From positions 1-17,653 of IMG/VR virus record IMGVR_UViG_2526164631_000015: 17,653 nucleotides of DNA. The stretch is one strand, 5' to 3'. A model generated the notes under the pieces. The model did no database searches. It was not told the origin of the DNA and was given only the letters and a program-made list of their open reading frames with translations. This stretch comes from a virus. Its lineage: Duplodnaviria; Heunggongvirae; Uroviricota; Caudoviricetes. This document shows positions 1 through 15,029 of this stretch, piece by piece. Positions within the stretch are counted from its first letter, which is position 1. Each line of letters opens with the position of its first letter. A program made the position numbers and the translations under genes.

Positions 1-256
1 AATTAAATTCGTGTTTCGGCTTGACGTAGCCCGGACGTAACACGCGGGTTTCACCACCGCGATGACGCAGCACTTTTCCTTCAACAACCGGGGAGACATA
101 GGCCGCCACCGGCGTTTTTCCGGTAATTTTGTCCAGCATCACCTCTTCGGTATGGAAATTCACCGTACGGCGGAAAAACAGCTCCAGAAACAGCGCACGA
201 AATTTCACTTTTTGTTCGGTATAACCGAGTAACTGGCGGGTCGTAAACAATCCCAT
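1..256 (-). CDS. E: Major capsid protein, N-terminal part (lambda gpE homolog); gene continues beyond the window start
   Basis: Minus-strand ORF with ATG at 254-256 and an AAAGGAA Shine-Dalgarno upstream. Translation MGLFTTRQLLGYTEQKVKFRALFLELFF...PGYVKPKHEFN aligns by eye with the lambda gpE N-terminus (MSMYTTAQLLAANEQKFKFDPLFLRLFF...PGYVKPKHEVN). Not in the ORF track because it runs off the window edge. Confidence 0.85.
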   Translation of the reverse strand, partial: MGLFTTRQLLGYTEQKVKFRALFLELFFRRTVNFHTEEVMLDKITGKTPVAAYVSPVVEGKVLRHRGGETRVLRPGYVKPKHEFN

Positions 257-284
257 AAATCAGTTCCTTTCATTCAGAAATCAG

Positions 285-306
285 TCAGGCCACCGCGGTG
301 GCCTGA
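285..306. other. 22-bp perfect palindrome (TCAGGCCACCGCGGTGGCCTGA) in the D-E intergenic spacer; strong RNA hairpin in the late transcript
   Basis: Read directly from the sequence: the segment is identical to its reverse complement. It lies between the D stop (314) and the E start (256). Confidence 0.5.
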
Positions 307-313
307 TAACGTG

Positions 314-661
314 TTACGGCAGCGCCGCGTGACTCAGGGCACTGCCGGCAAAGGCATTGGCCTTTTTGTGTTCATCCACACTTTCAGGCCAGCGGATTGC
401 CTCCGTCGCAAAGGTCCCCGACTTGTAATAGGTCAGTACCGTCTCTGTGCCTTCAAGCGGCAGTACCAGTATGCCAACCGCACTACCGGCTTTCTGTCCG
501 TCCCAGACCACCAGTTTCCCGGTGGCTTCATCCAGCATCAGGGGCGTCAGTGCCGGTGTTGCCGAGGAAATCCCGCTGCTGCCTGTGGCGGTATGAGCCG
601 GATCATTACCGGCAAAAATACGTACTTCCGCACGCTGTTCAGTGATGGTTTTCGTTACCAT
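314..661 (-). CDS. D: Head decoration protein (lambda gpD homolog)
   Basis: 115-aa ORF with an AGGAGG RBS about 10 nt upstream of ATG 659-661. Motifs DPAHTATG, TPLMLDEATGKLVVWDG, VGILV, YYKSGTF and KANAFAG match lambda gpD almost along its full length. Confidence 0.9.
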   Translation of the reverse strand: MVTKTITEQRAEVRIFAGNDPAHTATGSSGISSATPALTPLMLDEATGKLVVWDGQKAGSAVGILVLPLEGTETVLTYYKSGTFATEAIRWPESVDEHKKANAFAGSALSHAALP

Positions 662-697
662 ATTGTAAAAACCTCCTGTTGATGGTCAGCACTGACT

Positions 698-2205
698 TCA
701 TGGCATGGCCATGAGCATTTTCACGTCCGCATCACCGTCTGCTGACGTCTGTGGCACGCCACCCTGTACCGCTGCCGGTGAATGGTTCGCCATGATGCGT
801 TCAAACAGGGCGGTTGTGGATGCAGAGACCGGTTCTGCCTTACCTGATCCCGCAGCCAGCACAGCCCGGGCGCTCTCCACAGTCATTCCCGGGCAGGCAG
901 CCAGCTGTTCAGCCTGCGCCTCAGCCCCTTTTGCCTCATCCAGTGCCATGATCTGATCACGGAGTGAGGGTCCGGCATCCGCCTGCGGTGAAGCAGCCAG
1001 GATCGGGCGGGCTTTTTCCACCGTCATCTCCGGCATCGCCGCCAGCGTTGCCGCCAGTTGTTCACGACCGTTCGCTTCTTCACACGCCATAATGCGATCG
1101 GCTTCACTCTGCGTGGATGCCACCGGCTGCTGCGGTGCCGCCGCGGCCAGAATCGCCCGGGCCTGTTCAACGCTCATGCCCTGTTGTCCTGCCAGCATCG
1201 TGGCAAGCTGTTCACGTCCTTTCGCTTCCTGGCATGTCAGGATCCCCATCACTCGCTGGTTCTCCTGCGCGGCGGCTTCCGTTGCAGTTAATTGCGGCAT
1301 AGTGCCTCCTCTGACATTACTGTTCAGCGCCGTGGCCATCACACTGATGGCATCCGACGCATTGACTAATTCATCCGCCAGCCCGGCATCAATGCCGGAC
1401 TGACCTTCAAAAACGGCGGCCTCTGTTCCCGTGACGGCATCAACAGACAGACCGGTAAACATGGCCACTTTTTCGGCAAACATCCGGCGCGCCGCATCAA
1501 TGCGCTGCTGCATGTCCTGGCGAACCTCTGCCGGTAAGGCTTCAAACTGATTGCCATCCACCTTGTGCGCCCCCTGACGTAAATCAGCGTGATATCCACA
1601 CCGGCCTGCGCCAGATGACCGGCATAGCTGACATGGCTCATCATCACGCCAATGGAGCCGATACGGGATGTCTGGGTAACCAGCCGTCGGGAGCAGGCCG
1701 ACGCCAGCAGCATGGCTGCAGAACAGGCCGTGTCATTGCACAGTGCCCAGACCGGCTTCTGCTGACGGAGGCGGTAAATCATGTCAGCGCAGTCAAACGC
1801 GCCGGCGGCCTGCCCGCCCGGACTGTCAATGTCCAGCAGTATGCCCCGCACCTGGCTATCTGCCATTGCCTGCTGAAGACAGGCGACAATGCCGTCATAG
1901 CCAGTCATTCCGGAAAATGGCCGCATCCCCCCCAGCCGGTGCACCAGCGTGCCGGTCACCGGCAGTACCGCAATACCGTTCACCACCCGGTAAACACGGG
2001 CCGGTCGTTTACCTCCGGCCATGTACTCGTCCGTTTCAGCCAGCATTCCGGGAGCATCAAACTGTACCTGCTGTTGTGGTACCGAAAGACTTGATGCCCC
2101 CATCTCGCGCCCGAGCGCGCAAAAGAAAACCCGCGCATAGGCGGGCTCCAGAAGCAGCGGTTCATTGAATGCTGCGGCAATAATGTGTGAAAGATTACGT
2201 CTCAC
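698..2205 (-). pseudogene. C: Head maturation protease (S49/ClpP-like, lambda gpC homolog) with C-terminal Nu3-like scaffold region; reading frame broken near 1565-1575, giving ORFs 1366..2205 and 698..1561
   Basis: ORF 1366..2205 matches the lambda gpC N-terminal protease domain (AFNEPLLLEPAYARVFFCAL...GIAVLPV.GTLV...SGMTGY.GI...VWAL.ND...RRLVTQT...GSIGVMM...ITLIY). ORF 698..1561, in another frame, continues the gpC/Nu3 homology (VDGN...FAEKVAMFTGLSV...TEAAVF.GQ..IDAGLADELVN). The switch coincides with a run of five C on the plus strand (1570-1574). This may be a true frameshift or a homopolymer sequencing error. Confidence 0.55.
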
Positions 2206-3785
2206 GGGGTGTTGTCTCCTCTTCCGGCCTGCGACTCTCCGCTATCTGCTGCTGATACGCCTGCGCTATCCACACCGGACGTGAGAGTCCGGCTTTTTGC
2301 CGCTCAGCAGATTCCCTGACCTGCTGGCGGAAAATGTCCTGATAATCCTCGCCCATCAGCGCCAGCTCTTTCTCATACGTGCTCAGTCCGGCCTCAATGC
2401 GCATCACTGATTCCTGGACTTCCTTGAGCCCGTCAATGGCCATTCTTCCGGCTCCAATCCACTCAGCCCGTGACCAGGCTGATCGCGCCTGATAAAAATC
2501 AAAACGCGCCCGTGGCGGACGAATAATCCCCCGAAGAAGTGCCTCTTCCAGCCAGCAGGAAAACATCTGCGTGGCCAGCCGGGACGCAATAAATTTTCGT
2601 CGTCCCATAAAATAGCGCCACGACTCATTGGCGGAGGCGCGGGCACTTGAATAACTGACCTTCGAGTAATCCCGGGACAACTGTTCGTAGGAAACGCCAA
2701 GACCGGCGGCGATATACCGCAGCAGCGCCTGTTCAAGCGCCGAAAATCCATTGTCTGAATCCTGCGCGGTCTGAAGTTTCAGATCATCACCGGGGAAAAG
2801 GTGCGGAATTTTGACACCACCCAGCGTCACGCTATTCGTGTCATACCAGGTGGAGAACTTATCCAGAATATTAATAAGCGGATTATCCTTCTGCCCCTGC
2901 GGCGCACCGGCGATATATTCAAAGGCCTTTTCGGTATCAAGGTCACTTTCAATCGTCGCTGCATACATCGCCTTCACTATGGCCGACTGAAGCTGTGTTG
3001 CCTGCAGGGAATCGAGCATCTTCAGCCGTTCCATTACGCTGTAAAACTGATTGGCCCCACGGGTCTGCCCGTCCTCCACCGGCTCGAAAATATGCAGCAT
3101 GGCCGGACGCCCGGTGGAAGTTCACGCGGGATCCGTTCCCATCGTCCACTCCCGGAGACGGAAAATCATCCTCACAGATATGGTACGCAACGGCACGACC
3201 ATATCGATCGACCTCCACACCGGCCCGCAGAAAACGGTTCCCCATACCGTGTCCTGGCGTGTCCACCCGTTTCGGACTCACGGCTTTAAAACGCGTACGA
3301 AACAGTTGCGTGCTCTCCGTATCCCAGACCGGCTGCACAAAGATTTCGCCGTTAAACGCATGAACGCCCACACCTTCACGGATAAATTCCGTAAACGTGC
3401 GTTTCCCTTCCACGTCGATCTCGCCAGACATCCCTTCGGCGTATTCCGACCAGGCCGCCTCCACCTCATCGACAAAACTTTTTGCTGCAGTCTCCCGCAT
3501 CTCCAGCCAGCGCCAGTTCGGACGGTAGCTGATCAGAAACATATGCCCGACAATATGATCCTTATGCAGGGCCACCGCATTGGCCGCTATCCCGTTATTG
3601 CGCACCAGATCATCTGCACGGGCATTCCCCAGACGCAACGCGGGCAACAGGGCCGCATCGGCACTCTGCGCCGGTGGCAACCACTCCGCCATTTGCCCGC
3701 CAAATCCTGCACCGCCCCCGTTGTAGCTGAGGCTCTCCCGAAGCGGAACACCGTTCACATCAATCAGGACAGGCGTTCGTTTCAT
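2195..3785 (-). pseudogene. B: Portal protein (lambda gpB homolog), interrupted: ORFs 2949..3785 and 2195..3100 overlap in different frames
   Basis: The N-terminal ORF (MKRTPVLIDVNGVPLRE...GGGAGFGGQ...NARADDLVRNNG...HAFNGEIFVQ) and the C-terminal ORF (...HIFEPVEDGQTRGAN.FYSVME...YSSARASANESW.YFMGRRKF...MAIDGLKEVQE) each align with lambda gpB. Between about 3100 and 3160 the homology jumps frame and an in-frame TGA appears. Confidence 0.6.
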
Positions 3786-3987
3786 AACCTCACTCCCAGC
3801 GGACGACGGCGACGTCGGGTTGTCCCCAGTACCGACTCCGCATCATTGATCGCCCGGTTAAGCTCATCCAGAGAAGCCGCCGTATATTCAATTCTGCGAC
3901 CATCTTTCTGGACAGACACCACCCGTTTACCGGTAATAAATCAAGGCGCGCCTGACGCAGCGCCTGCAGTTCAGCGACTGTAACCAT
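3782..3987 (-). pseudogene. W: Head-tail joining / head completion protein (lambda gpW homolog) with an internal -1 frameshift near 3932-3940
   Basis: Frame A from ATG 3985-3987 gives MVTVAELQALRQARLDLL, like the lambda W N-terminus. A second frame gives TGKRVVSVQKDGRRIEYTAASLDELNRAINDAESVLGTTRRRRRPLGVRL, like the lambda W C-terminus ([25 protein letters not shown]...QRRRGPAGFYV), and ends in a TGA overlapping the portal ATG (ATGA). One base appears to be missing in TTATTACCGG. Confidence 0.55.
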
Positions 3988-5899
3988 TCACTCCTCCGGA
4001 CAGCTTCGCTGCCAGTTCTTTCAGGGTTGGCCGGGTCGTCTCTTCTTCCCGGGATTTTGCCAGTACAGCCAGATCAAGCTGCCAGCGTTGCACGGACACA
4101 CGTAATGCCGCGTAGGCATACACCAGGCAGTCCAGCGCTTCGTTACGCCGCTTTTTGTTATCCCACAGCAGACGCATCTTTCCTTTTTCCCACTTCTCCA
4201 CAAGCTCTTCCGCGACCAGTTGCTGCGCCTCTGTCTGCGAAAAAATCTCCGGATCATCAGGAAAACGGATGGCATACGACGTGGCTTCATCCGCAGGAGT
4301 GGGATCGGCTTTCATACGGGCATAGAGAATTTCTTTTGCGGTGTCCGTCCCCACTTCACACAGATACACGCCCCGCTGATTGCGGGTTTTCGGCATGGTG
4401 ATCACCGGCTTGCCATAGACAGATGCGCCTTTTACCGGCAGCACCCGGAAAACACCGTGTTTTTTTGACCTCTGATAGACAATTTCACCATCGATCCCCC
4501 CGGTGTCCCAGCAGACACGGGAAATGGTCATTTCGGTTCCGTCTGCATGGCAGTATTTTTTGTTGATCGCCGCATCCACACGTAACAGCGTCTCTTCCTC
4601 ATCGGGACGGCCCATAATGATGATTTTATCCACCAGAAAAGCTTCCTCTCCCGGTGCCCATCCCCAGACATACATCTCAAAACGGTTTCGCTGCGAGTCA
4701 ATGCCCGCCGTCAGATAAACCACCCGGGCAGGTACCGCCGCCGTGTAATGCACGACCTTATCCATCAGTACCTGGTGATCGAGTTTTTCGCCCACGGCTT
4801 CTTCCCAGGTCTCGCCCAGCGTGGTGTTCACAAAGGTTTTCAGGCCGTTGGGATCTTTCAGTGCATCCAGCCAGTCATAGACTATCTGTACCCAGGTGGT
4901 AAACGGACTGTACGCCGTCCAGATATGGAACGTGATGGAGCGCGGCGGCGGAATTTCATCACCCCGGGCGCTGAAAAACGTCAGACCGTCACGGGTCCAC
5001 ATGCCCGTGTTTTCACAGATCCACCGCCCGTTGCTCTGGTCCAGTTCAGACTGATGGATCACGCAGCCATGATGTTCACAGAGGTAGAAAACACTTTCGG
5101 GGCTGTCCTTCTCCCATTTAAGCCCAAAAGGCGTGGACTCATCACCAAATTTCAGATACTGCGCCTCCCCACAGTGCGGGCAGGGCACATAAAAACGCAT
5201 AAAATGCGCCGACTCGTTAGCGGCTTTTTCGATCTGGCAGGTGCCTTTGATTTTAGGCGTCGAGCCGCGAATGGATTTTGGCCACACCGACCCCTCAATA
5301 CGCTTATCCCCCAGCAGGGTTGGCGAGCCCTCTTTTTCGACATCCGGCTCGAACGAGGAAAGTTCGTCATAGCAGACCACGTCCACGGATTTTTCACGGT
5401 AGTTTTTGGCGGCAGCGCCGCCCAGGCACCAGAAACCGACGCCCGATGAAAAGCGTTTCAGCGTGAGAGTATTGTCACGATGTTTACGCCCCAGCCATGG
5501 GGAAAGGTCTTTCAGGCATGGCACGTTCCGAATCGTCGCCTCCACGTGAGACTTCATAAAATCTTCAGCGGCAGAATCCGTGGGCTGAAAAAGCAGACTG
5601 TTTCGGGATTTATGCTCAATAAAATACCCGACCACCCCCAGCAACATCTTTGTATAGCCAACACGGGCAGATTTAATCAGGTTAACCGTGCGAACCTGGT
5701 CGTTACCCATACAGTTCATAATGGCGATCTGGAATGGCAGCGTTTTCCATTCTCCCTCACCATATGAAGATTCTTTAGGCAGATAATAATTTTGATCAGC
5801 CCATTCAACTGCCGTCATTGGTACAACCCTGACCAGAGGCTGCAGCGCAACCGAAACGGCAGCCATCATATTATTCAGTTGTTGCTCTGATATATTCAT
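3971..5899 (-). CDS. A: Terminase large subunit (lambda gpA homolog)
   Basis: Long intact ORF. From the internal Met, MNISEQQLNN...TAVEWADQNYYLPKESSYGEGEWKTLPFQIAIMN...KSARVGYTKMLLGV...GGAAAKNYREKSVDVVCYDELS...GSVWPKSIRGSTPK...CPHCGE.QYLKFGD...TAYSPFTTWVQIV...NTTLGETWE...KKRRNEALDC.VYA is collinear with lambda gpA. Start chosen at ATG 5897-5899 by homology; the ORF track begins 57 nt further upstream. Confidence 0.9.
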   Translation of the reverse strand: MNISEQQLNNMMAAVSVALQPLVRVVPMTAVEWADQNYYLPKESSYGEGEWKTLPFQIAIMNCMGNDQVRTVNLIKSARVGYTKMLLGVVGYFIEHKSRNSLLFQPTDSAAEDFMKSHVEATIRNVPCLKDLSPWLGRKHRDNTLTLKRFSSGVGFWCLGGAAAKNYREKSVDVVCYDELSSFEPDVEKEGSPTLLGDKRIEGSVWPKSIRGSTPKIKGTCQIEKAANESAHFMRFYVPCPHCGEAQYLKFGDESTPFGLKWEKDSPESVFYLCEHHGCVIHQSELDQSNGRWICENTGMWTRDGLTFFSARGDEIPPPRSITFHIWTAYSPFTTWVQIVYDWLDALKDPNGLKTFVNTTLGETWEEAVGEKLDHQVLMDKVVHYTAAVPARVVYLTAGIDSQRNRFEMYVWGWAPGEEAFLVDKIIIMGRPDEEETLLRVDAAINKKYCHADGTEMTISRVCWDTGGIDGEIVYQRSKKHGVFRVLPVKGASVYGKPVITMPKTRNQRGVYLCEVGTDTAKEILYARMKADPTPADEATSYAIRFPDDPEIFSQTEAQQLVAEELVEKWEKGKMRLLWDNKKRRNEALDCLVYAYAALRVSVQRWQLDLAVLAKSREEETTRPTLKELAAKLSGGVNGYSR

Positions 5900-6380
5900 C
5901 GAGTAAATCCGGTAATTTATCCCCTGCCCGCGCACACTGATTTGCCCCCTTAGCAATAAGGGTTTTCAGATGGTCAAGATGGCGCGGTGTTAAATCAGGA
6001 AACTGTCGCTGCATGGATAAAGGGATGGAATCAAGCGTACTGGATAACGCCATTGCCAGCTTACTGAGGGCAAAAATACAGAACCCGGTGTCAATAAGTT
6101 TTCCTTTTGACACCTCATTTTTTAACTGCTGTGTAACAGCCTGTTCTGCTGTCAGTTCCCATCTGGCAATAAGCAATTTTTCCTCATAGTCGTCTTCGCT
6201 ATCGCCATCAGGCACATCGTTTTTACTTCTCCTCAGATACGATATGTAAAAATCGCGCCAGGCATCCAGATCCAGTTGCCCTCGCTTATTCGATATCGGG
6301 GCACCCGGCAATTTCTGCAATCTGCGAAGCTGGCGATCGGTCAGACTTAAATGCCTGGCAACTTCAGTCTGCGTAGCCAC
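5871..6380 (-). CDS. Terminase small subunit (Nu1-like; N-terminal HTH diverged, C-terminal half lambda Nu1-like)
   Basis: 169-aa ORF, GTG start preceded by GAGGTGAGGA. The C-terminal half (GFCIFALSKLAMALSSTLDSIPLSMQRQFPDLTPRHLDHLK...LPDLLDEYI) aligns with lambda Nu1 (AFCTFVLSRIAGEIASILDGLPLSVQRRFPELENRHVDFLK...IPGLLSEYI). Overlaps the gpA start by about 29 nt as in lambda, and the start lies about 190 bp from cosN. Confidence 0.8.
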   Translation of the reverse strand: MATQTEVARHLSLTDRQLRRLQKLPGAPISNKRGQLDLDAWRDFYISYLRRSKNDVPDGDSEDDYEEKLLIARWELTAEQAVTQQLKNEVSKGKLIDTGFCIFALSKLAMALSSTLDSIPLSMQRQFPDLTPRHLDHLKTLIAKGANQCARAGDKLPDLLDEYIRATTE

Positions 6381-6420
6381 TCCTCACCTCGCAAAAACTC
6401 TCACCTCACAATCACAACAA

Positions 6421-6526
6421 AACCGGTCATGTCCGGTTTACATGTCTGTTTTTTGTTCATGTCCGGTTCACAGAAGACCTGTTTTTATATTTTTCATATA
6501 GTTAACTTGAAGAGAAACCGGACATG
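6421..6526. repeat. cosB-like terminase-binding repeats: CATGTCCGGTT at 6428-6438 and 6458-6468 (direct) and 6516-6526 (inverted), plus a partial copy at 6441-6448
   Basis: Repeats read directly from the sequence, located between cosN and the small-terminase start, with one copy inverted as for lambda R3 versus R1/R2. Confidence 0.6.
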
Positions 6527-6563
6527 GATCCCGGAAAATTTTCATAAATAGCGAAAACCCGCG

Positions 6564-6575
6564 AGGTCGCCGCCC
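6564..6575. other. cos: cosN cohesive-end site; plus strand AGGTCGCCGCCC is the reverse complement of the lambda 12-nt cohesive end GGGCGGCGACCT
   Basis: Plus strand 6529-6575 (CCGGAAAATTTTCATAAATAGCGAAAACCCGCGAGGTCGCCGCCC) is the reverse complement of the lambda left end as I recall it. The flanking 6576-6790 resembles the lambda right end (cosQ side). Confidence 0.8.
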
Positions 6576-7086
6576 CGTAGCCTGCCGGATCGCCGGAAAG
6601 GACCCAATAAAATGATAATAATTATCATTTATATAAATACCATCACACATCCCACGTACACCATAAAACCACGACAAATAATCAATTTTGTCCAAGTCAT
6701 GCATTAATTGATCTGTGTCAACTTAACGTAAAGACATCTTAAGACAATACAAATCAGCAGCACTGAACACGGAAAAACACAATGTCATCAAAAAATAAAG
6801 CTTCCCAAACCAGATGATTAATCAAATCCATATTGCCCTTGAACGTAAGGGATCGGGTAATTTTTCGGCATGGGTTATTGAAGCCTGCAGGAGAAGGCTG
6901 GCAACAAATGCAAAGCACCTGCGCCCGGCCAGCATGAAAAATAACGAGAAATGAACGTTCGGTTACAGGAACCGGTAGCTACTGTCTTCTAACAATATTT
7001 CATCTTCATATCCGGCGAAACAAGACTTTACCCTGCAGGGATGTACTGAATAGCAACAGAGTGATAATTAACTTCTGATAAAATAA

Positions 7087-7413
7087 TCAGGGTGCTGAAG
7101 GACTAAAGATAAATGTTTTCTTCACGCCTTTACGCGGCTTGTCCTTCTCAAATCGCCATTTTGCCATCGCCTTTACAACCTGCTCATCAAACAGATGGTG
7201 CGGCTCTGAACGGATAAACTCAATTCGGGTGACAGTACCATCAGCACCAATATCAAACTTCACATCAACCCGTCCCTTTATATAATTTGCCGCGGCATAG
7301 GCCGGATATTGTGGTAATGCCTTAACCAACTGTCGAGGCATATCTGTTTTATGTTGCGTACAGCCCATAACCAAAGAAGACAACAAAATAATTAACGGAA
7401 GATTTCTTTTCAT
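7087..7413 (-). CDS. Lipoprotein with a TonB C-terminal-like domain (moron, function unknown)
   Basis: Signal peptide plus lipobox (MKRNLPLIILLSSLVMGC). Mature region PQYPAYAAANYIKGRVDVKFDIGADGTVTRIEFIRSEPHHLFDEQVVKAMAKWRFEKDKP aligns with the E. coli TonB C-terminal domain ([60 protein letters not shown]). Start taken at ATG 7411-7413; an in-frame ATG at 7426-7428 is the alternative. Confidence 0.75.
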   Translation of the reverse strand: MKRNLPLIILLSSLVMGCTQHKTDMPRQLVKALPQYPAYAAANYIKGRVDVKFDIGADGTVTRIEFIRSEPHHLFDEQVVKAMAKWRFEKDKPRKGVKKTFIFSPSAP

Positions 7414-7433
7414 TTTTATTCCCGGCATAGATA

Positions 7434-7450
7434 AGAATAAGTCTTATTCT
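7434..7450. promoter_or_regulatory. AT-rich dyad AGAATAAG-T-CTTATTCT just upstream of the TonB-C lipoprotein start, overlapping a candidate -10 (TAGAAT); Fur-box-like operator candidate
   Basis: Palindrome read directly from the sequence. Its resemblance to Fur-box hexamers (GATAAT-type) and the promoter assignment are inference. Confidence 0.35.
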
Positions 7451-8088
7451 AACAATGCAGCCCTGTCGGTCATCAATCCTCTGCTTAATGGCAATGACAA
7501 TTATCCGACTTAAATCACAAATCAGACACATGACATAACAGAGCTTGCGAGGTAACACATCGTCCGGTTTCTTCCACCATCGCACCGGACCAGCGACCAT
7601 GAGGGGACAACGCCGCGCTCCGTTAACACGGTAAACCCCGGTGTGTATCGTTTTTGATTATCCCCGCACACTCGCGCAGAGGAGTCTCCCTCTCGGGCTG
7701 TGGTCTCTGTTGATGCGGGAATACGGCGACGATACAGTGCATAGTTATGTCAGGCTAAAATGCCTTTATCAAATCTGGGTAACGCAATCTGCCATTGTTG
7801 GCTCCGGTTGTGGTGATGATGTCAAGCAAGCCCATCTTGACTATCTCAACTAGTCGATTCATGACATATGTCACATTTATACCAACCAGATCATTGCGTT
7901 GAGTTTACAACTCAATAATTCTTGGTTGGACGTCAAGTTTTGACGGTATTCGGGTGGCAGTTGATAGCAATCTTGGAACCGTCCACCTAATAGCTGCTTG
8001 TGTGGCGTTTAAATTGTGGAGTGCTCGCAACAGAACTTTTCTTTCTTGTTTGCGAGCGATGTTTAGCAACTTTTAAGAGAGTTAAGTC

Positions 8089-8319
8089 ATGGAGTTTTTG
8101 AAAGAGCATCATTTGCCTTCAATAATTTTTGGAATTTTTTCCGCCATTTTTTGGATTATTTCATGTTTTGCATCTTCCAAAGAACACCCACCAAAAACGG
8201 AACAAGGCAGTTTCTCATCACTGGGTTGTTTTAAAGCCATTGAAATACAAAGTAAATGGAATAAACGGGCTGCTTTTTGCGCAGCGTTAGCTGTTCTTGC
8301 TCAAGTATTTAGCTTTTAG
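8089..8319 (+). CDS. Small hydrophobic/membrane protein, 76 aa, function unknown (moron on the strand opposite the late genes)
   Basis: ATG start with a GAGAG motif upstream. Hydrophobic segments (LPSIIFGIFSAIFWIISCFA; AAFCAALAVLAQVFSF). AT-rich context. Followed 18 nt downstream by an intrinsic terminator. Confidence 0.5.
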   Translation: MEFLKEHHLPSIIFGIFSAIFWIISCFASSKEHPPKTEQGSFSSLGCFKAIEIQSKWNKRAAFCAALAVLAQVFSF

Positions 8320-8336
8320 TTTCAAAAGTGTAAATC

Positions 8337-8372
8337 AGAACCACTCGTATAGCGGGTGGTTCTCTGTTTTAT
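8337..8372 (+). terminator. Rho-independent terminator of the small plus-strand ORF
   Basis: Stem AGAACCACTCG / CGGGTGGTTCT (one G-U pair), loop TATAG, followed by CTGTTTTATT. Confidence 0.6.
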
Positions 8373-8435
8373 TCGTGTTGCGACTAAAACTAACTAAAAT
8401 CACGCATATGAAAGATAATGGGAAAATTATCGCTA

Positions 8436-8873
8436 TCATCGAAGGCATTGCGTCCTAATGTACTCCTGCAAGTAGTTAACCTGCGCGGTTATCCTGTCGA
8501 TTCCACTTCGGAGACGGTAATAATTGAGTTCAGCATCTGCTGTAAGTCCTGGGGTTTCTCCATTGCCCATGCCGCTGGCTCCGGTCGTTGACTTTGCACA
8601 GGTGGCGGCGACTTGCAGGCGCTTACGCCCAGCAGAAACATCAGCACGGAGACTTTCGATAGTCGCATTAGCATCAGCAAGCTCCTTTGTGTATCTGGCG
8701 TCAAGTTCTGCTACATCACGTTGCCGCTTCTGCATATCAGCGATGATGGATGTGGCTTTATCGCGCTGCTCTTTGTAGGCGATGGCGTTATCACGGTAAT
8801 GATTAACAGCCCATGAAAGGCAGACGATGAGGCAGATGACCAGAACGTAGATAATCGCGGTTACTCTGCTCAT
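8436..8873 (-). CDS. Rz: Spanin inner-membrane subunit (i-spanin) Rz
   Basis: [39 protein letters not shown]...[19 protein letters not shown] is near-identical in pattern to lambda Rz ([39 protein letters not shown]...). The ATG at 8871-8873 overlaps the R stop (ATGA). Confidence 0.9.
8489..8674 (-). CDS. Rz1: Spanin outer-membrane lipoprotein subunit (o-spanin) Rz1, embedded in the +1 frame of Rz
   Basis: Signal peptide with lipobox ([20 protein letters not shown]) followed by a Pro-rich mature part ([21 protein letters not shown]), wholly inside Rz in another frame as in lambda. Confidence 0.8.
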
Positions 8874-9367
8874 TGTTGCCCCCACAAACAGACTTCACGC
8901 TCAATCTCACGGCGAGTCATCAGCCCTTTCCATTGCTTACCGCCAGCGTATGTCCAGCGCCGTAGCTGATCACATGCGCCTTTGATATCGCCCTGGTTTA
9001 TTTTGCGAAGAAGCGTCGATGTTCTGAAATTGCCAGCGCCCACGTTGTAAACGAACGAGTAAAGAGCGCCGCGCGTTGTTTCCGGTATATCGACGTTGAT
9101 GTACGGGTTTATTTGTCTGGCGACCGTGGCAAGGTCTTTATTCAGGAGGGCTTTGCATTCTGCTTCGGTATACGTTTTACCGGGCATGATGTCTTTTCCG
9201 GTGTGTCCGTGACATACAGTCCATACGCCAACGATATCTTCGTATGGTATGTAGCTGACACCTTCCAGGCCATCGTCACCACTCGGACCAGTGATGAGCA
9301 CAGACGCTATGGCAACAGCCCCACCACCAATAGCAGCAGCAACAGCCTTGCGTAATGACGGCGACAT
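8870..9367 (-). CDS. R: SAR (signal-anchor-release) endolysin, phage lysozyme, phage-21 R type
   Basis: N-terminal SAR domain ([24 protein letters not shown]) followed by a lysozyme core ([21 protein letters not shown]...). Matches phage 21 R as recalled. Confidence 0.9.
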
Positions 9368-9573
9368 TATTCACCTCTCGCAGCCTTACGCTTATCTTCT
9401 TTAATCTTGAAATAAAGGTTTGTCAGATACGTCAGCAGGCCAAACAGCAGACTCCCCAGCACACCTATTGCCACCCACTGGGACGGAGAGACTTTGTCCA
9501 GCAGCTGCAGTAACCAGTATCCCGTCCCCACCGCTGACGTGGTGTATGACACACCTGTTGTGATTTTTTCCAT
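9367..9573 (-). CDS. S: Pinholin (phage-21 S21 type holin)
   Basis: 68-aa product with two TMDs and a charged C-terminus ([68 protein letters not shown]). Resembles S21 and sits immediately upstream of the SAR endolysin. Confidence 0.85.
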
Positions 9574-9829
9574 CTGATGTATGTCTCCGTCACCGCCGAC
9601 AGAAAATGAAAGTAAAGAAAAACAAAAAAGCCGCCAGTGTCACCCACTGACGGCCAACGCCGGGAGCCGTGATTATGGCATTCAGGCTCTGCTAAAAATG
9701 CCAGATAACATTCCGGCCAACCCCTGATTCAGGTTATAAATGACACAATATCTTGACAACATCCGTCACTGTCTGTCAGAAAATGTACTGCCAAGTATAA
9801 GTATCATGTGAAGTACATCTACCCGTTTT

Positions 9830-9866
9830 AGCCAGCGTCCTTCAGAGTGGGCGCTGGCTTTTTTTA
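9830..9866 (+). terminator. Intrinsic-terminator-like hairpin oriented on the plus strand, directly abutting the nanS-p stop codon
   Basis: Stem AGCCAGCGTCC / GGGCGCTGGCT (about 11 bp, one G-U), loop TTCAGAGT, followed by TTTTTTT on the plus strand. On the minus strand the run is A, so it does not terminate the late transcript. Confidence 0.55.
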
Positions 9867-11732
9867 TTATGCTGCCGGTGCATTTATCTCCAGCACCAGA
9901 CTTTCTATCTCAACACCATACGCTGCATTTTTGGTAATATCCGTCAGCGTCAGCGCATTCAGCCCCAGTGTCAGACTGTCTTTTATGACCTGGAATGCCG
10001 GGCCAGCCACTCCATTCAGTTTCGGAGTAACCGTGGCACTGCCGGCGGTGAACACCAGTTCCAGCGTCTGCCAGTCATTACTGTAATTCCCGAACTCGCC
10101 CAACTTTGTGTTTCCTGCTTTCTTGTGATGCATCAGATTCAGTTTGCCGTCTGTGGTCTGGGTGAAGAACGACATCAGGAACGGGTTACCAGTCCCGGTC
10201 ATCGCCACGACGTCAGGTAACGCTACATCGGTATACAGATAAATTCCCAGGCCGAACTGGTTGTTGGTCAGTGCGCCTGACAGTCGAAACTTACAGCTCA
10301 GTCTGCCACCCCGTGTCAGCAGGGAGACTGCGTCATCCACCGGATGCATCAGGGACCAGGTTTTATTGCTCTGCTTGGCGATCTTAAATACACCACCCGA
10401 CAACTGAATTCCGCCGTCCTTAATGGTCCAGCCCTGCGCAGCAGCCTCTCCGGCTGTCGGCAACAGGGAGATTGTGCGTACGGATGCATCTTCAGACGGC
10501 CCCGATGGCGTGTTGCCGCCGGGCGAGGGTTTGATTTCCGGTGCCTTACCACTGATGAAAGCTGAGGTGCGCCCGGCTGCGTTCAGAATAGCGGTTGCCA
10601 TACGATCCGGAATAATGCTCCTGCGCGCCCATGAACTGAAATGTGTCGGGCGGTTTGATGATACCTGGTTTCCATTCGTTCTCGATGCCGCACCGTAATA
10701 TCCTGATGCCGGAATATCCGGATCTTCTGCCGGTGCGTTAGTGGCGGTATTGACGCCGTTACCGTCTGTCATGAAGGGCACAAAATAAACGCCCTCACTC
10801 TCCCTGTTTTTATACCCGCCGTACACGGTGTCGTACTGGGTAGCGTATGTATTTTTCCAGTAATACGTCGTGTCACCACAAATCCACGGCACATTTACAG
10901 CACTGCCACCATGACACTGCGCGTTAAACACAGTGAGGTCAGCACGAAACTGCTTCAGCATGGCTGTAAACAGCGCAGGTTGCTGTGCGTAGGTGGCGGC
11001 GCTCATGTCAAACTCTCCCTGCATCCAGCACACCGCCAGCAACACATTTTTCGGGTTCTTCTGTAATGCAGCTTTAGTGCGCGCAATCAGGTCCTGATAT
11101 AACGGTTTACCCACCCCCCAGCGCGCCGAATCCTGGCTGGCCCCCGCGTCCGCACTGAATGTCCCCTCCGCGCCCTGGGTGAATGCCGAACCACCACGAC
11201 AGCATGGTACCAGCAGGATCCCCGCGTTATTCGGGATATACGGGAGCAGTTTTTTGGCAATATGTAAGCCCTGGCCGACACAGCCGTACTGCCCTTTGCT
11301 CAGGTCTGCCTTCGGATGATTCAGCGTACTCATATCCTGCACATCATGCAGACAGTGGTCAGCCGGGATGATGTCGTTATACGTACAACTCTCTCCACCC
11401 GGAGTTACCGTGCTGCGGCGCGCCAGCTGTTTAATGCGCGGATCCGGAGCATCGTAAGAATCCGGTAACGGAAGCCCTTCACCGTAGGCCATGCCGTTGG
11501 ACTGTCCGGCAAGCACAACCACGTAGAACCAGTCCGGCTCAGTTGCACCACTGACGACCACATCACCTTCTGCTGCAATCGCCTGCATCAGGGTATAAGG
11601 GGTTATGGCCACCGGACTACCAAACGGCTGCCAGCCCTCTTTCAGTTTATGTGTCAGCTTTTCCGCAAGATCTGACGGCGACGCCGCCCTGACAACATCA
11701 TAGTGTTTAAATGCCATGGTTCTTTCCACCAT
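9867..11732 (-). CDS. nanS: Prophage sialate O-acetylesterase (NanS-p-like; SASA/SGNH esterase domain with C-terminal extension)
   Basis: 621-aa ORF with the catalytic-serine GQSN motif (VVLAGQSNGMAYG) typical of SASA-family sialate O-acetylesterases. Position between the tRNA/toxin locus and the lysis genes matches the nanS-p (yjhS-like) gene of Stx-type phages. Confidence 0.8.
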   Translation of the reverse strand: MVERTMAFKHYDVVRAASPSDLAEKLTHKLKEGWQPFGSPVAITPYTLMQAIAAEGDVVVSGATEPDWFYVVVLAGQSNGMAYGEGLPLPDSYDAPDPRIKQLARRSTVTPGGESCTYNDIIPADHCLHDVQDMSTLNHPKADLSKGQYGCVGQGLHIAKKLLPYIPNNAGILLVPCCRGGSAFTQGAEGTFSADAGASQDSARWGVGKPLYQDLIARTKAALQKNPKNVLLAVCWMQGEFDMSAATYAQQPALFTAMLKQFRADLTVFNAQCHGGSAVNVPWICGDTTYYWKNTYATQYDTVYGGYKNRESEGVYFVPFMTDGNGVNTATNAPAEDPDIPASGYYGAASRTNGNQVSSNRPTHFSSWARRSIIPDRMATAILNAAGRTSAFISGKAPEIKPSPGGNTPSGPSEDASVRTISLLPTAGEAAAQGWTIKDGGIQLSGGVFKIAKQSNKTWSLMHPVDDAVSLLTRGGRLSCKFRLSGALTNNQFGLGIYLYTDVALPDVVAMTGTGNPFLMSFFTQTTDGKLNLMHHKKAGNTKLGEFGNYSNDWQTLELVFTAGSATVTPKLNGVAGPAFQVIKDSLTLGLNALTLTDITKNAAYGVEIESLVLEINAPAA

Positions 11733-11977
11733 CTGAAAAATAATTCTTTAAAATACCTGACATGTAATACAGAAAAAACACAAAACCATACCTTAAATAA
11801 AAACCTCATCATCAAGCAGATATGCATGGATAAACTACAAGACGAGATATAAACCACCCTGCATTTAAATAAACAATAAACAACATCAGAAAAATAATTC
11901 TGCTCTATGGTTTACAATCAAAAATATCATTTATACTTTTCAGAACATCACCAGCAAGGCATAAACAAGGAAACTAA

Positions 11978-12313
11978 ATGAAGTGGATTGTGATTGATAC
12001 AGTTATCCAGCCATCATGCGGAATATCTTTTTCAGTCATATGGAGTAAAATAAAATTAATAATCTGGTATCAATCGGATGCTTTCTTACCTCCTGAAAGT
12101 ATATTTACACTGACTCACACAGGTATCATGCTCAATAACAAAGTGCTACCTGTAACCATTTACAACGTAGTACCATTCAATAAAACATTCTGGAATTTAA
12201 TCAAAAACAGCCAGGAATGCCCTACAAATACAGATAACGTATTGAATGAATGCTTTAATAACCGTTGCACTCTGCAAATATGTCCTTATGGGCTAAAACA
12301 ACAAAGTCCATAA
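11978..12313 (+). CDS. Hypothetical protein, 111 aa, Cys-rich C-terminus; cargo gene antisense to the late operon
   Basis: ATG preceded by a strong RBS (AAGGAAACTAAATG). Candidate sigma70 promoter upstream (TTTACA ... TATACT around 11912-11940). About 33% GC. No recognisable family by eye. Confidence 0.45.
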
Positions 12314-12332
12314 GGAGTTTACTCACATCTGA

Positions 12333-12369
12333 CAAAATCAATATAAACAGCCCCTCCGGAGAGGGGCTG
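12333..12369 (-). terminator. Intrinsic-terminator-like hairpin on the minus strand (stem CAGCCCCTC / GAGGGGCTG, loop CGGA, then TTTATATTGATTTTG on the minus strand)
   Basis: GC-rich 9-bp stem with a T-rich tract on the minus strand only. Lies within the cargo block and adjacent to the 3' end of the plus-strand 111-aa ORF. Confidence 0.5.
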
Positions 12370-12745
12370 GAGAGTGGCGCTATGTGCCATTGCATGGTGC
12401 CGGGTGCCTCCCGGTGAATTCAGTACCAGCACCTGAATCCGCGATTATCCCATATACCTACTCGCTGATTGCCCCTCCGCACAGGTGGATTCACCATGCC
12501 AGTTTCTTTTAACAAACTCCCCGCAAACCAGACAACAGTCAACCGCCTGAATTGTGAAGTATTTAAAAATTTCTCCGGCTAACAGTCTGGCGTTTTCTTT
12601 TTCAGCAACGGGAAAGCAACAACCACCACACCCGCCACCAGTACACAGTCAGCCAGCACTGACATTATCCGGCTGCTGCAATGCCATTCACAAAAACAGT
12701 AAGCAATCACTTTTTACCGTAACAGGTGATAATCCAGATATGTAT

Positions 12746-13072
12746 CTACCCCAGATGAGTAATCCGAAGTTCATCCATACCACAGGTCCTGGCTATTCTG
12801 TTGTACTCCTGAACAAGAGCAAATAATTCTGAATTAGCAACCATGAACTCATCGCAAACCCTCTGTATAGCATCACTATTCAGAATAATAACGTCTCTTC
12901 CCAAAAGACGATCAGGAGTACAGAACAAAACTGTCAAACGGCTGAAGGCCTTTGCTCGTGCTGCATTGACTATATCAATACGCTGCCTAAGGATGAAACA
13001 CCCCGACGCCTCATCAATATTCACTCTACCCACACCATATGAATGATAAATATTTAATACTGAAAAAACCAT
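12746..13072 (-). CDS. Hypothetical protein (about 108 aa from ATG 13070-13072; ORF track starts at TTG 13099); coding status uncertain
   Basis: Open frame in the cargo block with no convincing RBS and no recognisable motifs. Confidence 0.25.
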   Translation of the reverse strand: MVFSVLNIYHSYGVGRVNIDEASGCFILRQRIDIVNAARAKAFSRLTVLFCTPDRLLGRDVIILNSDAIQRVCDEFMVANSELFALVQEYNRIARTCGMDELRITHLG

Positions 13073-13209
13073 TAGACCGTATAACAAACACTCAATCAAT
13101 ACTTAACAGAACTTTTATTTTTGACAAACATATAATATTTTCAACAATATACTGAGCCAGGTATATTCCAGTATAAGGCTCTGCCGGAAGAAATCTGGAA
13201 GAATGAATA

Positions 13210-13286
13210 TGGCGCGTTGTACTGGATTCGAACCAGTGACCGATTGCTTAGAAGGCAATTGCTCTGTCCGGCTGAGCTAACAACGC
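13210..13286 (-). tRNA. tRNA-Arg (anticodon UCU)
   Basis: Minus-strand sequence GCGTTGTTAGCTCAGCCGGACAGAGCAATTGCCTTCTAAGCAATCGGTCACTGGTTCGAATCCAGTACAACGCGCCA folds as a canonical cloverleaf: 7-bp acceptor, GCTC/GAGC D-stem, anticodon loop CTTCTAA, T-loop TTCGAAT, encoded CCA. Confidence 0.85.
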
Positions 13287-13298
13287 ATAATGCAGATA

Positions 13299-13375
13299 AT
13301 GGATTGCCATCGGGGACCCGGGCCCCACACAGCCAGTTTCGAAAGCTGACGCTCTCTGCCGATGAGCTAATGGCG
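13299..13375 (-). tRNA. tRNA-like element, probably degenerate tRNA-Arg (UCG-like anticodon); non-canonical T-loop and two acceptor-stem mismatches
   Basis: Minus-strand sequence CCGCCATTAGCTCATCGGCAGAGAGCGTCAGCTTTCGAAACTGGCTGTGTGGGGCCCGGGTCCCCGATGGCAATCCA has TA at positions 8-9, a GCTC/GAGC D-stem, an anticodon loop TTTCGAA and a terminal CCA. Acceptor pairs 1-72 and 2-71 are C-A mismatches and the T-loop is CCCGGGT rather than TTCRANT. Confidence 0.4.
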
Positions 13376-13383
13376 GTATGTGA

Positions 13384-13459
13384 TGGTGGCCCTTGCTGGA
13401 TTTGAACCAGCGACCTGGCGATTATGAGTCGCTCGCTCTCACCACTGAGCTAAAGGGCC
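13384..13459 (-). tRNA. tRNA with CAU anticodon, ileX/ileZ-like (tRNA-Ile2, lysidine type) or Met
   Basis: Minus-strand sequence GGCCCTTTAGCTCAGTGGTGAGAGCGAGCGACTCATAATCGCCAGGTCGCTGGTTCAAATCCAGCAAGGGCCACCA is a canonical cloverleaf. The anticodon stem-loop GCGACTCATAATCGC matches E. coli ileX as recalled. Confidence 0.85.
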
Positions 13460-13508
13460 GGTAGCAGAATAATAATGGTGCGTAATTAATTCTGCAATCC
13501 CATCCGTT

Positions 13509-14558
13509 TCAAACGATTAAATCCTGAACTTCCCTGACTGTCTGTTCAAAACGTCCTGTCTCCAGCTCAACACCAATCGCACAACGCCCCAGTGCCATCG
13601 CCGCTTTTACCGTTGAACCTGAACCCATAAAAAAATCTGCAACCAGGTCTCCCGGACGACTGCTCGCGTTGATTATCTGCTGCAGCATTTCTGCCGGTTT
13701 TTCGCACGGATGTTTCCCTGGATAGTACTGCACCGGTTTATGCGTCCAGACATCGGTGTACGGAACCTGCGCCGTCACACCGAAATACCGCCGCAAATTT
13801 TTATATTCACTCAGCAGTTCCGTATACTGCCGGTTCAGCTCACTGTATGTGCTGACCAGCTGGTGGTGTGGCTTTTCCAGTTCCCCGCGCTGATGTTTTT
13901 CTGCCGCAACACGCGCAAACAACGCCTGCAATTTGTTGTAATTACCCTCGTTCGGTAACTGCCACTGACTGGTACCAAACCAGTGCGAAGCCATGTTTTT
14001 CTTTCCGGTGGCTTCCGCTATCTGTTTTGACGTTATTCCCAGTGATTTACGCGCATCACGAAAGTAAGAAATCAGCGGGGCCATGACGTGCTGTTTTAGC
14101 TCGCGCCCCTGTGCCACATAGCCATCATCTTTCGGGCGATACGGTCCCTGATAATGTTCTGCAAACAGAATGCGCTCTGTTGCCGGAAAATACGCCCGCA
14201 GACTTTCCTTATTGCACCCGTTCCAGCGTCCGGACGGCTTCGCCCAGATAATGTGGTTCAGCACATTAAAGCGCTCACGCATCATGATTTCGGTGTCAGA
14301 TGCCAGGCGATGACCACAGAACAGGTAAAGACTTCCGGCAGGCTTCAGTACCCGCCAGAACTGCGCCAGACACTGGTCCAGCCATTTCAGGTAATCATCG
14401 TCGCCCTCCCACTGGTTATCCCAGCCCTCGGGCTTCACTTTAAAGTATGGCGGGTCTGTGACTATCAGATCGACAGAGTTTTCCGGTAAGGTCTGGATAA
14501 ATTCCAGGCAATCAGCGTTGATTAACTCACAACTGGATATTTTTACAGTATTAATCAT
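13509..14558 (-). CDS. DNA methyltransferase, beta-class amino-MTase (N6-adenine or N4-cytosine); orphan, no cognate endonuclease in the window
   Basis: 349-aa ORF with motif IV DPPY near the N-terminus (LIVTDPPYF) and motif I FxGxG near the C-terminus (DFFMGSGSTV), the circularly permuted order of beta-class MTases. Confidence 0.85.
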   Translation of the reverse strand: MINTVKISSCELINADCLEFIQTLPENSVDLIVTDPPYFKVKPEGWDNQWEGDDDYLKWLDQCLAQFWRVLKPAGSLYLFCGHRLASDTEIMMRERFNVLNHIIWAKPSGRWNGCNKESLRAYFPATERILFAEHYQGPYRPKDDGYVAQGRELKQHVMAPLISYFRDARKSLGITSKQIAEATGKKNMASHWFGTSQWQLPNEGNYNKLQALFARVAAEKHQRGELEKPHHQLVSTYSELNRQYTELLSEYKNLRRYFGVTAQVPYTDVWTHKPVQYYPGKHPCEKPAEMLQQIINASSRPGDLVADFFMGSGSTVKAAMALGRCAIGVELETGRFEQTVREVQDLIV

Positions 14559-14708
14559 AGATCAATAAGCACTTCTCTGATAGGCTCATACCGCTTTTGC
14601 GCAAAGCAGATGGGCCTGAGGTTTGCTTGTGACCCCAACGCATGAGCAGATGGCTGGCAGGTGCCGCTAACACCCACCAGCCGCCCATTACCACAAATTA
14701 AAAAGCCT

Positions 14709-14918
14709 TCACTGCGGAAGGCGTCTGTAACAACCGAACTGATAATCTGCCAGACCCGCCATAACAAGCTGGGTCAGTATTAACTGGCAGCGTTCGCGTG
14801 AAAGGTAAGTATTCTGCGCAATTTCCCCGACGGTCGCCGGTTCGGTGACGCTTAATTCATTAAACACCACTCTGGCGGTTTCGGTCATATCCTGCTGTTT
14901 TAGCATGCCTTTTTCCAT
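14709..14918 (-). CDS. Small hypothetical protein (about 65-70 aa); start uncertain (ORF track extends to 15029)
   Basis: Open frame immediately downstream of the tR'-like terminator. Internal ATGs at 14916-14918 and 14904-14906 carry weak to moderate RBS (AAAGG); the 15029 ATG abuts the terminator T-tract with no RBS. Confidence 0.35.
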   Translation of the reverse strand: MEKGMLKQQDMTETARVVFNELSVTEPATVGEIAQNTYLSRERCQLILTQLVMAGLADYQFGCYRRLPQ

Positions 14919-15029
14919 TTTCCGGTTAACGTGACATACCAATAACTCTTGTCGAAAAAGCCAGCAAGTTGAAAGACCGGTATTAGCAACCACCAGCGCG
15001 TTTAACGCCCCGTGCCGTTTTTCAGTCAT

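Follow-up and report, generated by a model that had tools for sequence, protein, structure and literature searches.

A lambdoid prophage lipoprotein with a TonB C-terminal domain, related to chromosomal lipoproteins with upstream Fur boxes: a possible outer-membrane-tethered TonB mimic

Introduction

Why would a lambda-like prophage carry, between its lysis genes and cos, a gene for a small lipoprotein resembling the end of TonB? The question is raised by a stretch of 17,653 nucleotides (positions 1 to 17,653 of the IMG/VR record IMGVR_UViG_2526164631_000015, hereafter the window), in which a 108-residue product is encoded on the minus strand at 7087–7413. TonB-dependent transporters are gateways for iron and vitamin B12, but also for many phages, colicins, microcins and siderophore-antibiotic conjugates, and a phage-borne TonB domain could in principle touch all of these. 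An earlier reading made from the letters alone (the original prediction) had described the product as a lipoprotein with a TonB C-terminal domain, unable to transduce energy, which could act as a decoy for TonB-box ligands.

In RefSeq this protein already bears the product name ‘TonB family protein’, and it appears as ‘tonB-like’ in phage records, so the domain assignment is not new. What is new here is the placement of the phage gene in a family of small lipoproteins encoded on Raoultella, Klebsiella and Serratia chromosomes, with Fur boxes upstream of their genes.

Results and Discussion

The product has a lipoprotein-type signal and a genuine TonB C-terminal domain

The open reading frame (ORF) enclosing the gene spans positions 7087 to 7428 on the minus strand. 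The start codon is the ATG at 7413–7411, matching the RefSeq annotation, and the stop codon is the TGA at 7087–7089; a further in-frame ATG upstream, at 7428, is replaced by GTG in most related loci. A candidate Shine-Dalgarno sequence, GGGAA (7419–7423, minus strand), lies 5 nt before the ATG, and the start region GGAAT(A/G)AAAATG is kept in both allelic types of the gene (type A, that of the window, and type B, both described below). The product, MKRNLPLIILLSSLVMGC/TQHKTDM-PRQLVKALPQYPAY...KKTFIFSPSAP, corresponds to the 108-residue RefSeq protein WP_000828067.1, with 100% identity in E. coli strains E2348/69 and O111:H2 12A.

Residues 26–104 (7102–7338, minus strand) are a TonB C-terminal domain (CTD). 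The Pfam search that the original prediction had proposed as a check matches TonB_C (PF03544) to residues 34–101 with a score of 57.2 bits, well over the cut-off of 24.6 (E=2.4e-15), and TIGR01352 is matched with 57.1 bits against a cut-off of 27.1 (E=1.7e-15). The best sequence matches in the PDB, obtained with phmmer, are the E. coli and Salmonella TonB CTDs (E ∼1e-16), and the alignment to E. coli TonB places residues 26–104 on TonB residues 153–231 with no gaps. Identity of the domain to true TonB CTDs is 38–42%, and 41% to that of E. coli. The landmark residues of TonB are retained, namely Y163/P164 (Y36/P37 in the lipoprotein), F180 (F53), G186 (G59), F202 (F75), W213 (W86) and F230 (F103), and the strand equivalent to beta3 (residues ∼94–103), whose counterpart in TonB pairs with the TonB box, is full-length.

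Structure prediction gives the same answer. The AlphaFold2 (AF2) model has a predicted local distance difference test score (pLDDT) of 86.8 overall and above 96 across the TonB_C domain, which shows the three-stranded sheet and helices of a TonB CTD, and Foldseek matches it to the E. coli and Salmonella TonB CTDs with a probability of 1.00 and a root-mean-square deviation (RMSD) of 1.0–1.8 Å. The RMSD is 1.0 Å to 2gsk_B, the TonB of the BtuB:TonB complex in its Ton-box-binding form, and 1.3 Å to 1u07. No significant Foldseek match to TolA-type domains was obtained (E>0.1). Among the viral structures of BFVD there is none at E<=0.001, the best being a single 256-residue protein (E=0.22, probability 0.97).

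The rest of TonB is missing. The NCBIfam TonB equivalog models are matched only over their C-terminal 80–85 positions, with 50–74 bits against cut-offs of 265–448. The domain is separated from Cys18 by a linker of just 8 residues (TQHKTDMP), with no proline-rich spacer, and the N-terminus is a cleavable lipoprotein signal in place of the inner-membrane anchor of TonB. As it possesses neither the anchor nor the proline-rich rod, the protein cannot transduce energy, and the original prediction was sound on this point.

The signal peptide (7360–7413, minus strand) reads MKRNLPLIILLSSLVMGC18, with the basic residues K2 and R3, the hydrophobic stretch LPLIILLSSLV and the lipobox L-V-M-G-C18 (codons at 7360–7374). 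The lipobox was called with a rule coded for this analysis after PROSITE PS51257 ([LVI][ASTVIM][GAS]C within the first 15–35 residues), and the protein has the n-region, h-region and lipobox that define a bacterial lipoprotein. The cysteine and lipobox recur in most of its relatives. Together with the profiles, the PDB matches and the AF2 model, this bears out the original description of a lipoprotein signal peptide followed by a TonB C-terminal domain. Lipoproteins lacking Asp at position +2 are sorted to the outer membrane; the +2 residue is here Thr (Ser, Ala or Thr in the other alleles and relatives), and localization to the outer membrane is therefore expected.

Relatives on enterobacterial chromosomes carry Fur boxes

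An exhaustive profile search found further lipoproteins of ∼110 residues with the same architecture, and a scan of one genome per species located relatives in Raoultella, some Klebsiella species, Serratia and Erwinia. These chromosomal proteins (for instance P0177, and those of loci L005–L013) combine a lipobox with TonB_C in 107–133 residues, and share the motifs SEPxHLFD and KWRFExxKP with the phage protein. In a neighbor-joining (NJ) tree of the domain, built with no bootstrap, the phage alleles nest inside the small-lipoprotein clade, apart from the enterobacterial TonB CTDs. The identities agree with this placement: the domain is 46–53% identical to that of the nearest chromosomal lipoproteins and 37–51% identical to that of the others, compared to 41% for the E. 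coli TonB CTD. The tree and the identities thus place the phage gene in the small-lipoprotein clade, and direct capture from a host tonB gene was rejected on this basis, which is indicative only.

The neighborhoods of these relatives are housekeeping rather than phage. In Raoultella, the gene is flanked by lacZ/lacI, a glycine-zipper lipoprotein and DUF1440, and in Serratia by an mltB-like gene, dsbB and nhaB. No gene other than the lipoprotein is shared between the chromosomal loci and the window.

In seven of the eight chromosomal loci fetched (the exception being Erwinia), the best Fur-box match of the 15–16 kb locus lies directly upstream of the lipoprotein gene. These boxes, at loci L005–L010 and L013 of Raoultella, Klebsiella and Serratia, score 14–17/19, and are often the sole site of at least 14/19 in their locus; examples are the Serratia box (GGTAATGAAAATCATTATC, 17/19) and that of Klebsiella R390 (16/19). 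The seven loci represent three lineages, namely Raoultella/Klebsiella, a second copy in R. planticola, and Serratia. With Fur boxes upstream of so many of its members, the lipoprotein family looks iron-regulated, and the chromosomal genes look like undescribed candidate members of the Fur regulon in these three genera. They would add an unrecognized member to the iron-starvation response there.

Two alleles are under purifying selection and widespread in E. coli

The phage gene exists as two alleles, type A and type B, which show 70% protein identity and 72% DNA identity. The ratio of non-synonymous to synonymous substitution rates (dN/dS) between them is 0.13, with dS near saturation, and the 108-codon frame is intact in all of the 80 type A loci fetched from IMG/VR. 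The gene is under purifying selection, and these two results rule out its being a pseudogene or relic. Among 5426 complete E. coli genomes, type A is found in 415 and type B in 1225, carriers of the latter including Nissle 1917 and the E. coli type strain.

A possible TonB mimic tethered to the outer membrane

What, then, might a TonB domain without a motor do at the outer membrane? The reading that I favor, tentatively, is that the lipoprotein is an outer-membrane-tethered mimic of TonB, which would bind TonB boxes and compete with TonB for them, and might be termed an ‘anti-TonB’. The tether of ∼8 residues would hold the monomeric domain just beneath the barrels of the TonB-dependent transporters, where, like the TonB CTD, it could pair with exposed TonB boxes by beta-strand augmentation, through the strand equivalent to beta3. 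Its candidate targets are transporters, for example FhuA, BtuB, FepA and Cir, and perhaps also group-B colicins as they enter. Having no ExbBD-coupled anchor, the mimic could not pull, and so would act as a competitive, non-productive occupant. The expected outcome is that phages, colicins and microcins would enter less readily by TonB-dependent routes, with some loss of siderophore and vitamin B12 uptake. During lytic growth, the gene would be expressed as the late transcript reads through it; in the lysogen it is probably expressed as well, from an extended -10 promoter of its own, with an ancestral Fur operator that would have largely decayed in the phage copies. Localization to the outer membrane, binding to TonB boxes, the inhibitory outcome, the activity of this promoter and any Fur response are all inferred.

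Work on TonB itself makes this plausible. TonB boxes bind the TonB CTD as an extra strand alongside beta3, and are also present in TonB-dependent colicins (PMC11658791). A TonB-box pentapeptide lowered TonB-mediated colicin killing and phi80 infection (PMC9841981). An over-expressed periplasmic TonB domain inhibited iron import by E. coli transporters, as cited in PMC9841981 (Howard et al. 2001, J Bacteriol 183:5885), and as far as that citation goes, it provides an experimental precedent for a decoy function, which by analogy is plausible for the lipoprotein. The engineered fragments resemble it in being periplasmic CTDs devoid of an energy-coupling anchor; as described there, they differ in being artificial, soluble and over-expressed forms of host TonB, whereas the prophage domain is natural, lipid-anchored and diverged, with a predicted activity. 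The Fur boxes of the chromosomal relatives would further tie the family to iron and TonB physiology, and I count them in favor of this reading. Also in its favor are the match of the domain to the Ton-box-binding form of TonB, the conserved lipobox with Thr, Ser or Ala at +2, and the purifying selection, intact frames and wide distribution of the gene.

The closest known system by structure is the E. coli TonB CTD (∼150–239; 1u07, 2gsk and 2grx), which belongs to the same family and fold, with ∼40% identity over 79 ungapped residues and an RMSD of 1.0–1.3 Å, and whose YP motif, aromatic core and TonB-box-pairing beta3 strand are retained in the lipoprotein. Unlike TonB, the lipoprotein has no proline-rich rod and no transmembrane anchor coupling it to ExbB/ExbD, is lipid-anchored from the opposite side, probably at the outer membrane, ends 4 residues earlier, has Leu or Tyr in place of Q160, and falls in the separate small-lipoprotein clade. 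Leu33 of the window protein occupies the position of Q160, and in TonB the substitution Q160L gives activity back to TonB-box mutants (PMC11658791); I regard this as a curiosity and not as evidence.

In function, the lipoprotein has analogues in Cor (of phages phi80, N15, HK022 and mEp167) and Llp (of T5), small phage lipoproteins that inactivate the TonB-dependent transporter FhuA, Llp acting from the inner leaflet of the outer membrane. The likeness is a functional analogy only; the profile and structure matches of the lipoprotein are all to TonB_C. Cor and Llp target FhuA, the receptor of the phage itself, whereas the expected action of a TonB mimic is on TonB boxes in general. Self-receptor exclusion of the Cor/Llp kind is unlikely in this phage, whose J tip resembles that of phage 434.

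Several points weigh against a TonB mimic. The counterparts of TonB residues R158, Q160 and R166 differ between the two phage alleles. In the closest complete prophage (locus L103, in strain 12A), the C-terminus of J is 94% identical to that of phage 434, which uses OmpC as receptor, so the target would not be the receptor of the phage itself. The literature search found no study of the 108-residue protein or of stand-alone TonB_C lipoproteins, and none of the PADLOC defense-system models is matched. The TonB/TolA-CTD fold has other partners, as in FusB with ferredoxin, or TolA domain III with TolB, g3p and colicins. Competition for abundant transporters would also require a sufficient level of expression. 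Finally, the Fur boxes of the relatives imply a decoy induced by iron starvation, which would seem to harm iron uptake just when it is needed, and this argues for a subtler or even positive role of the family.

Such a positive role is the strongest of the alternatives, although I consider it unlikely. The lipoprotein would then not be a defense but would modulate or help TonB-dependent transport in normal physiology, as an outer-membrane factor induced by iron starvation and supplied to E. coli by the prophage as a fitness gene. Its possible actions are docking TonB boxes or handing them over, pairing with the CTD of TonB at the outer membrane, and rationing scarce TonB among many transporters. 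The Fur boxes lying directly upstream of the gene in seven of eight chromosomal loci, from three lineages, are in line with this, as are the housekeeping, non-phage contexts of those loci, the nesting of the phage alleles within the chromosomal clade, and the strong purifying selection. However, there is no known mechanism by which a motorless, membrane-tethered CTD would help transport, and the sole experimental precedent for a free TonB CTD is, from what PMC9841981 cites, one of inhibition. The Fur box is moreover largely lost in the phage copies, and the chromosomal family is narrowly distributed.

It is less probable again, and in my view improbable, that the fold serves a partner other than TonB boxes. 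The protein could in that case be an envelope or virulence moron in the manner of Bor/Iss or Lom, involved in serum resistance or in linking the outer membrane to peptidoglycan; or it could capture a specific periplasmic or imported protein. Its location in a classical moron zone beside bor/iss would fit, in a prophage that also has Lom and type III secretion system (T3SS) effectors, and so would the varied ligands bound by TonB- and TolA-like CTDs (ferredoxin for FusB; TolB, g3p and colicins for TolA III). Against this, the closest matches are true TonB CTDs, with 38–42% identity and an RMSD of ∼1 Å, while those to TolA-type domains have E>0.1; the beta3 strand and YP motif are kept; and, to judge from the Fur boxes of the relatives, the biology involved is that of iron and TonB. 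Bor/Iss and Lom do resemble the lipoprotein in being accessory envelope proteins of the lambdoid late region, and bor/iss adjoins its gene in Nissle 1917, but they belong to a different protein family, and bor runs against the late operon whereas the lipoprotein gene runs with it.

The remaining alternative comes from the PHROGs database, where the product matches phrog_1267 over its full length (E=3.4e-42), labeled ‘Rz-like spanin’ in the category lysis; an N-terminal lipoprotein signal like that of o-spanins, and a co-oriented position ∼1 kb downstream of the lysis cassette, would suit a lysis accessory or spanin-like protein, but this reading is very improbable and was rejected because the phage is already equipped with a full Rz and, embedded in it, a proline-rich Rz1 lipoprotein (8436–8885), and because the architecture does not fit. 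I applied the definitions of an i-spanin as an N-terminal transmembrane segment with a coiled coil, an o-spanin as a short proline-rich lipoprotein in or overlapping Rz, and a u-spanin as a lipobox with a C-terminal transmembrane segment. The protein instead consists of a TonB_C domain that is globular and compact. It lacks a coiled coil, a proline-rich o-spanin body and a C-terminal transmembrane segment, and its homologues occur at non-phage chromosomal loci with Fur boxes. The label is probably an annotation error carried over from the neighboring genes, and may spread through tools that rely on PHROGs.

Returning to the TonB mimic, a broader proposal is possible, which I consider less likely than not: that the family is a new class of envelope protein, an ‘anti-TonB’ anchored by lipid to the outer membrane, which originated as a Fur-regulated chromosomal gene of Enterobacterales, was spread by lambdoid prophages, and occupies TonB boxes from the outer-membrane side. 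If true, it would by now have reached some 25% to 33% of E. coli, among them enteropathogenic (EPEC) and Shiga toxin-producing (STEC) strains and Nissle 1917, and would either protect broadly against phages, colicins and microcins that depend on TonB or adjust the uptake of iron. The mechanism would be distinct from that of Cor and Llp in not being confined to one receptor, making it a new kind of prophage-conferred resistance, independent of any single receptor. It could then confound phage therapy and ‘Trojan horse’ antibiotics in many carrier E. coli lineages, and would offer a proof of concept from nature to drugs directed at the interface between TonB and the TonB box. If the protein has no effect on TonB-dependent processes, the finding comes down to an ordinary uncharacterized moron with a misleading database name.

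The upstream dyad and candidate promoter

The original prediction had also noted a dyad over a candidate -10 element, and had proposed control by a repressor, possibly Fur. The dyad, AGAATAAG-T-CTTATTCT (7434–7450), is indeed a perfect 8-1-8 repeat, and it overlaps TAGAAT (7451–7446, minus strand), which is preceded by TG and hence forms an extended -10. The candidate sigma-70 promoter (7446–7473, minus strand) consists of ATGACC (7473–7468), a 16-nt spacer, and the extended -10 TGTTAGAAT (7454–7446); in a consensus scan it scores 9/12 with the TG, the -35 being poor. The segment ATTGTYAGAATAAGAC is kept between types A and B though its flanks diverge, a conservation that says nothing of activity. 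A second GATAAT, ∼85–90 nt upstream of the ATG, is kept in all four alleles.

A role of the dyad as an RNA hairpin or terminator is not supported, the z-score of its minimum free energy (MFE) being +0.29. Palindromes with perfect 8-nt arms are scarce in the window, where a scan gave 6 matches at 4 sites, against 1.3 +/- 1.3 matches in Markov-1 simulations. Two further perfect palindromes are AGGCCACCGCGGTGGCCT at 287–304, which separates the head decoration gene from that of the major capsid protein, and GTTCCGGTACCGGAAC at 17079–17094, near the start of a DUF968 gene. On the plus strand, antisense to the lipoprotein gene and within it, a sigma-70 promoter-like site near consensus (TTCACA-16-TATAAT, 7259–7286, 11/12) may be a chance occurrence or an antisense promoter.

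I regard it as doubtful that the dyad is a working Fur operator which would switch on the type A copy under iron limitation in the lysogen. The array that includes it, GATAAGAATAAGTCTTATT (7430–7448), matches the Fur consensus GATAATGATAATCATTATC at 13/19, which is weak; this is nevertheless in register with F-F-x-R hexamers (GATAAG AATAAG T CTTATT), and is attained by just 2.1% of shuffles of the 80-bp upstream region. Under the hexamer (NATWAT) model the site scores 12/15, over the candidate -10, and is the third-best locus of the window. The chromosomal relatives, whose start codons are closely preceded by strong Fur boxes, point the same way, and the dyad is unchanged in P0003, a variant of the type A lineage with 90% identity, although nearby bases differ.

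On the other hand, there are mismatches beside the dyad center and at the G of the GAT core (TAAG-T-CTTA versus TAAT-N-ATTA). The right arm is missing in the commoner type B, where the best upstream match to the Fur consensus is 10/19, and in the variant P0006, which has no dyad upstream and whose best match (12/19) lies elsewhere, ∼75–95 nt upstream of the ATG. Within type A, the right arm is substituted in 6 of the 80 loci, and the dyad is no less polymorphic than its flanks. The promoter and start site are predicted ones, and the conserved GATAAT further upstream offers an alternative. The type A promoter aligns with the Fur-box promoters of Raoultella and Klebsiella too weakly to argue for or against their homology. 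The dyad of type A may be a decayed remnant of a Fur site, and an iron/Fur ancestry of the phage gene is credible in view of the 14–17/19 boxes of its relatives. For the phage copy, the proposed Fur control has weak support, and the relatives bear the idea out in part.

The strongest Fur-like site of the window lies elsewhere, at 6608–6632 (TAAAATGATAATAATTATCATTTAT, 16/19), with the core TGATAAT-A-ATTATCA, a perfect 7-1-7 palindrome. It is ∼35 bp upstream, in the phage sense, of cosQ/cosN, and is conserved in the same position both in lambda (GATGATAATCATTATCAC) and in Nissle 1917, in whose prophage the flank is unrelated. Candidate roles are part of a packaging signal, a protein-binding site or a Fur site. 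As a conserved feature next to cosQ, also present in lambda, it was ruled out as the control region of the lipoprotein gene.

A moron-like insert between the lysis cassette and cos

Read on its minus strand, the window corresponds to the late region of a lambda-like prophage. The order is the Q-region, a SASA esterase (9867–11732), a holin (9367–9573), a lysozyme (8870–9367), Rz with its embedded Rz1 lipoprotein ending the lysis cassette (8436–8885; RefSeq ‘lysis protein’), a spacer of ∼1 kb, the TonB-CTD gene, cos, Nu1, terminase, portal and head genes, all of these coordinates being on the minus strand. The cosN site (6564–6575, minus strand) has the exact lambda sequence GGGCGGCGACCT and was confirmed by alignment with the lambda right end. 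Over its full length, the window is best matched by a complete prophage that strain 12A of E. coli O111:H2 carries at potB (98.8% identity), and a 521-bp segment around the lipoprotein gene is 100% identical in EPEC E2348/69.

The gene and its promoter region form a moron-like insert of roughly 560 bp (approximately 7000–7561, minus strand). Many Shiga toxin (Stx) phages share only 7562–7700 and have no TonB-CTD lipoprotein gene, and homology to the lambda right end starts again below ∼6960, so that presence or absence of the gene is polymorphic at the junction between lysis and cos. No Rfam family is matched in the region of the dyad, and structured RNA in the conserved segment 7555–7705 is not significant (z=-1.26).

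The moron-like placement between Rz/Rz1 and cosN is as originally described. The position had further been called equivalent to that of bor, which is not strictly so: the lipoprotein gene is co-oriented with the late operon, unlike bor, and the two coexist. In the Nissle 1917 prophage, Rz is followed by iss/bor on the opposite strand, then by the TonB-CTD gene and Nu1, both morons being present, which makes the site a separate slot beside bor. Being oriented like the late genes, it should be expressed in lytic growth by read-through from pR'. A terminator scan of the minus strand found nothing resembling a terminator between the stop codon of the lipoprotein gene and a point beyond cosN.

Other features of the window and its closest prophage

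Just downstream of Rz and on the opposite strand, placed as bor is in lambda, a 76-residue ORF with two hydrophobic segments (8089–8319, plus strand) runs against the late genes; RefSeq describes it as ‘hypothetical protein’, and it belongs to PHROG 14357. It is followed by a hairpin (8337–8363) with a 12-bp stem and a T-rich tail. The prophage of strain 12A (L103; 12493–15906, 5566–10059) also carries Lom and, beyond the tail fibers, the T3SS effector genes espW and nleG fragments.

Compared to that near-identical prophage, the window has small indels at 1575–1576, 3115, 3157, 3933 and 17461, and the ORFs of its S49 head protease (698–2205) and portal (2195–3785) are each split in two, which is either real decay of the prophage or the result of sequencing errors. 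Nearly all of the substitutions between the two (179 of 207) fall within a single 1-kb stretch, ∼15000–16000, that covers the DUF1133 and RusA genes and the region upstream, while the remainder of the window is almost identical, which suggests a recombinational patch.

Between the Q-region and the esterase gene, Rfam identifies the small RNA (sRNA) STnc100 (12339–12528, minus strand, 123.6 bits), and two tRNAs, for Arg and Ile according to RefSeq, are found at 13213–13286 and 13387–13459 (both minus strand). On the strand opposite to these RNAs, an iraM-like anti-adapter gene is present at 11978–12313 (plus strand).

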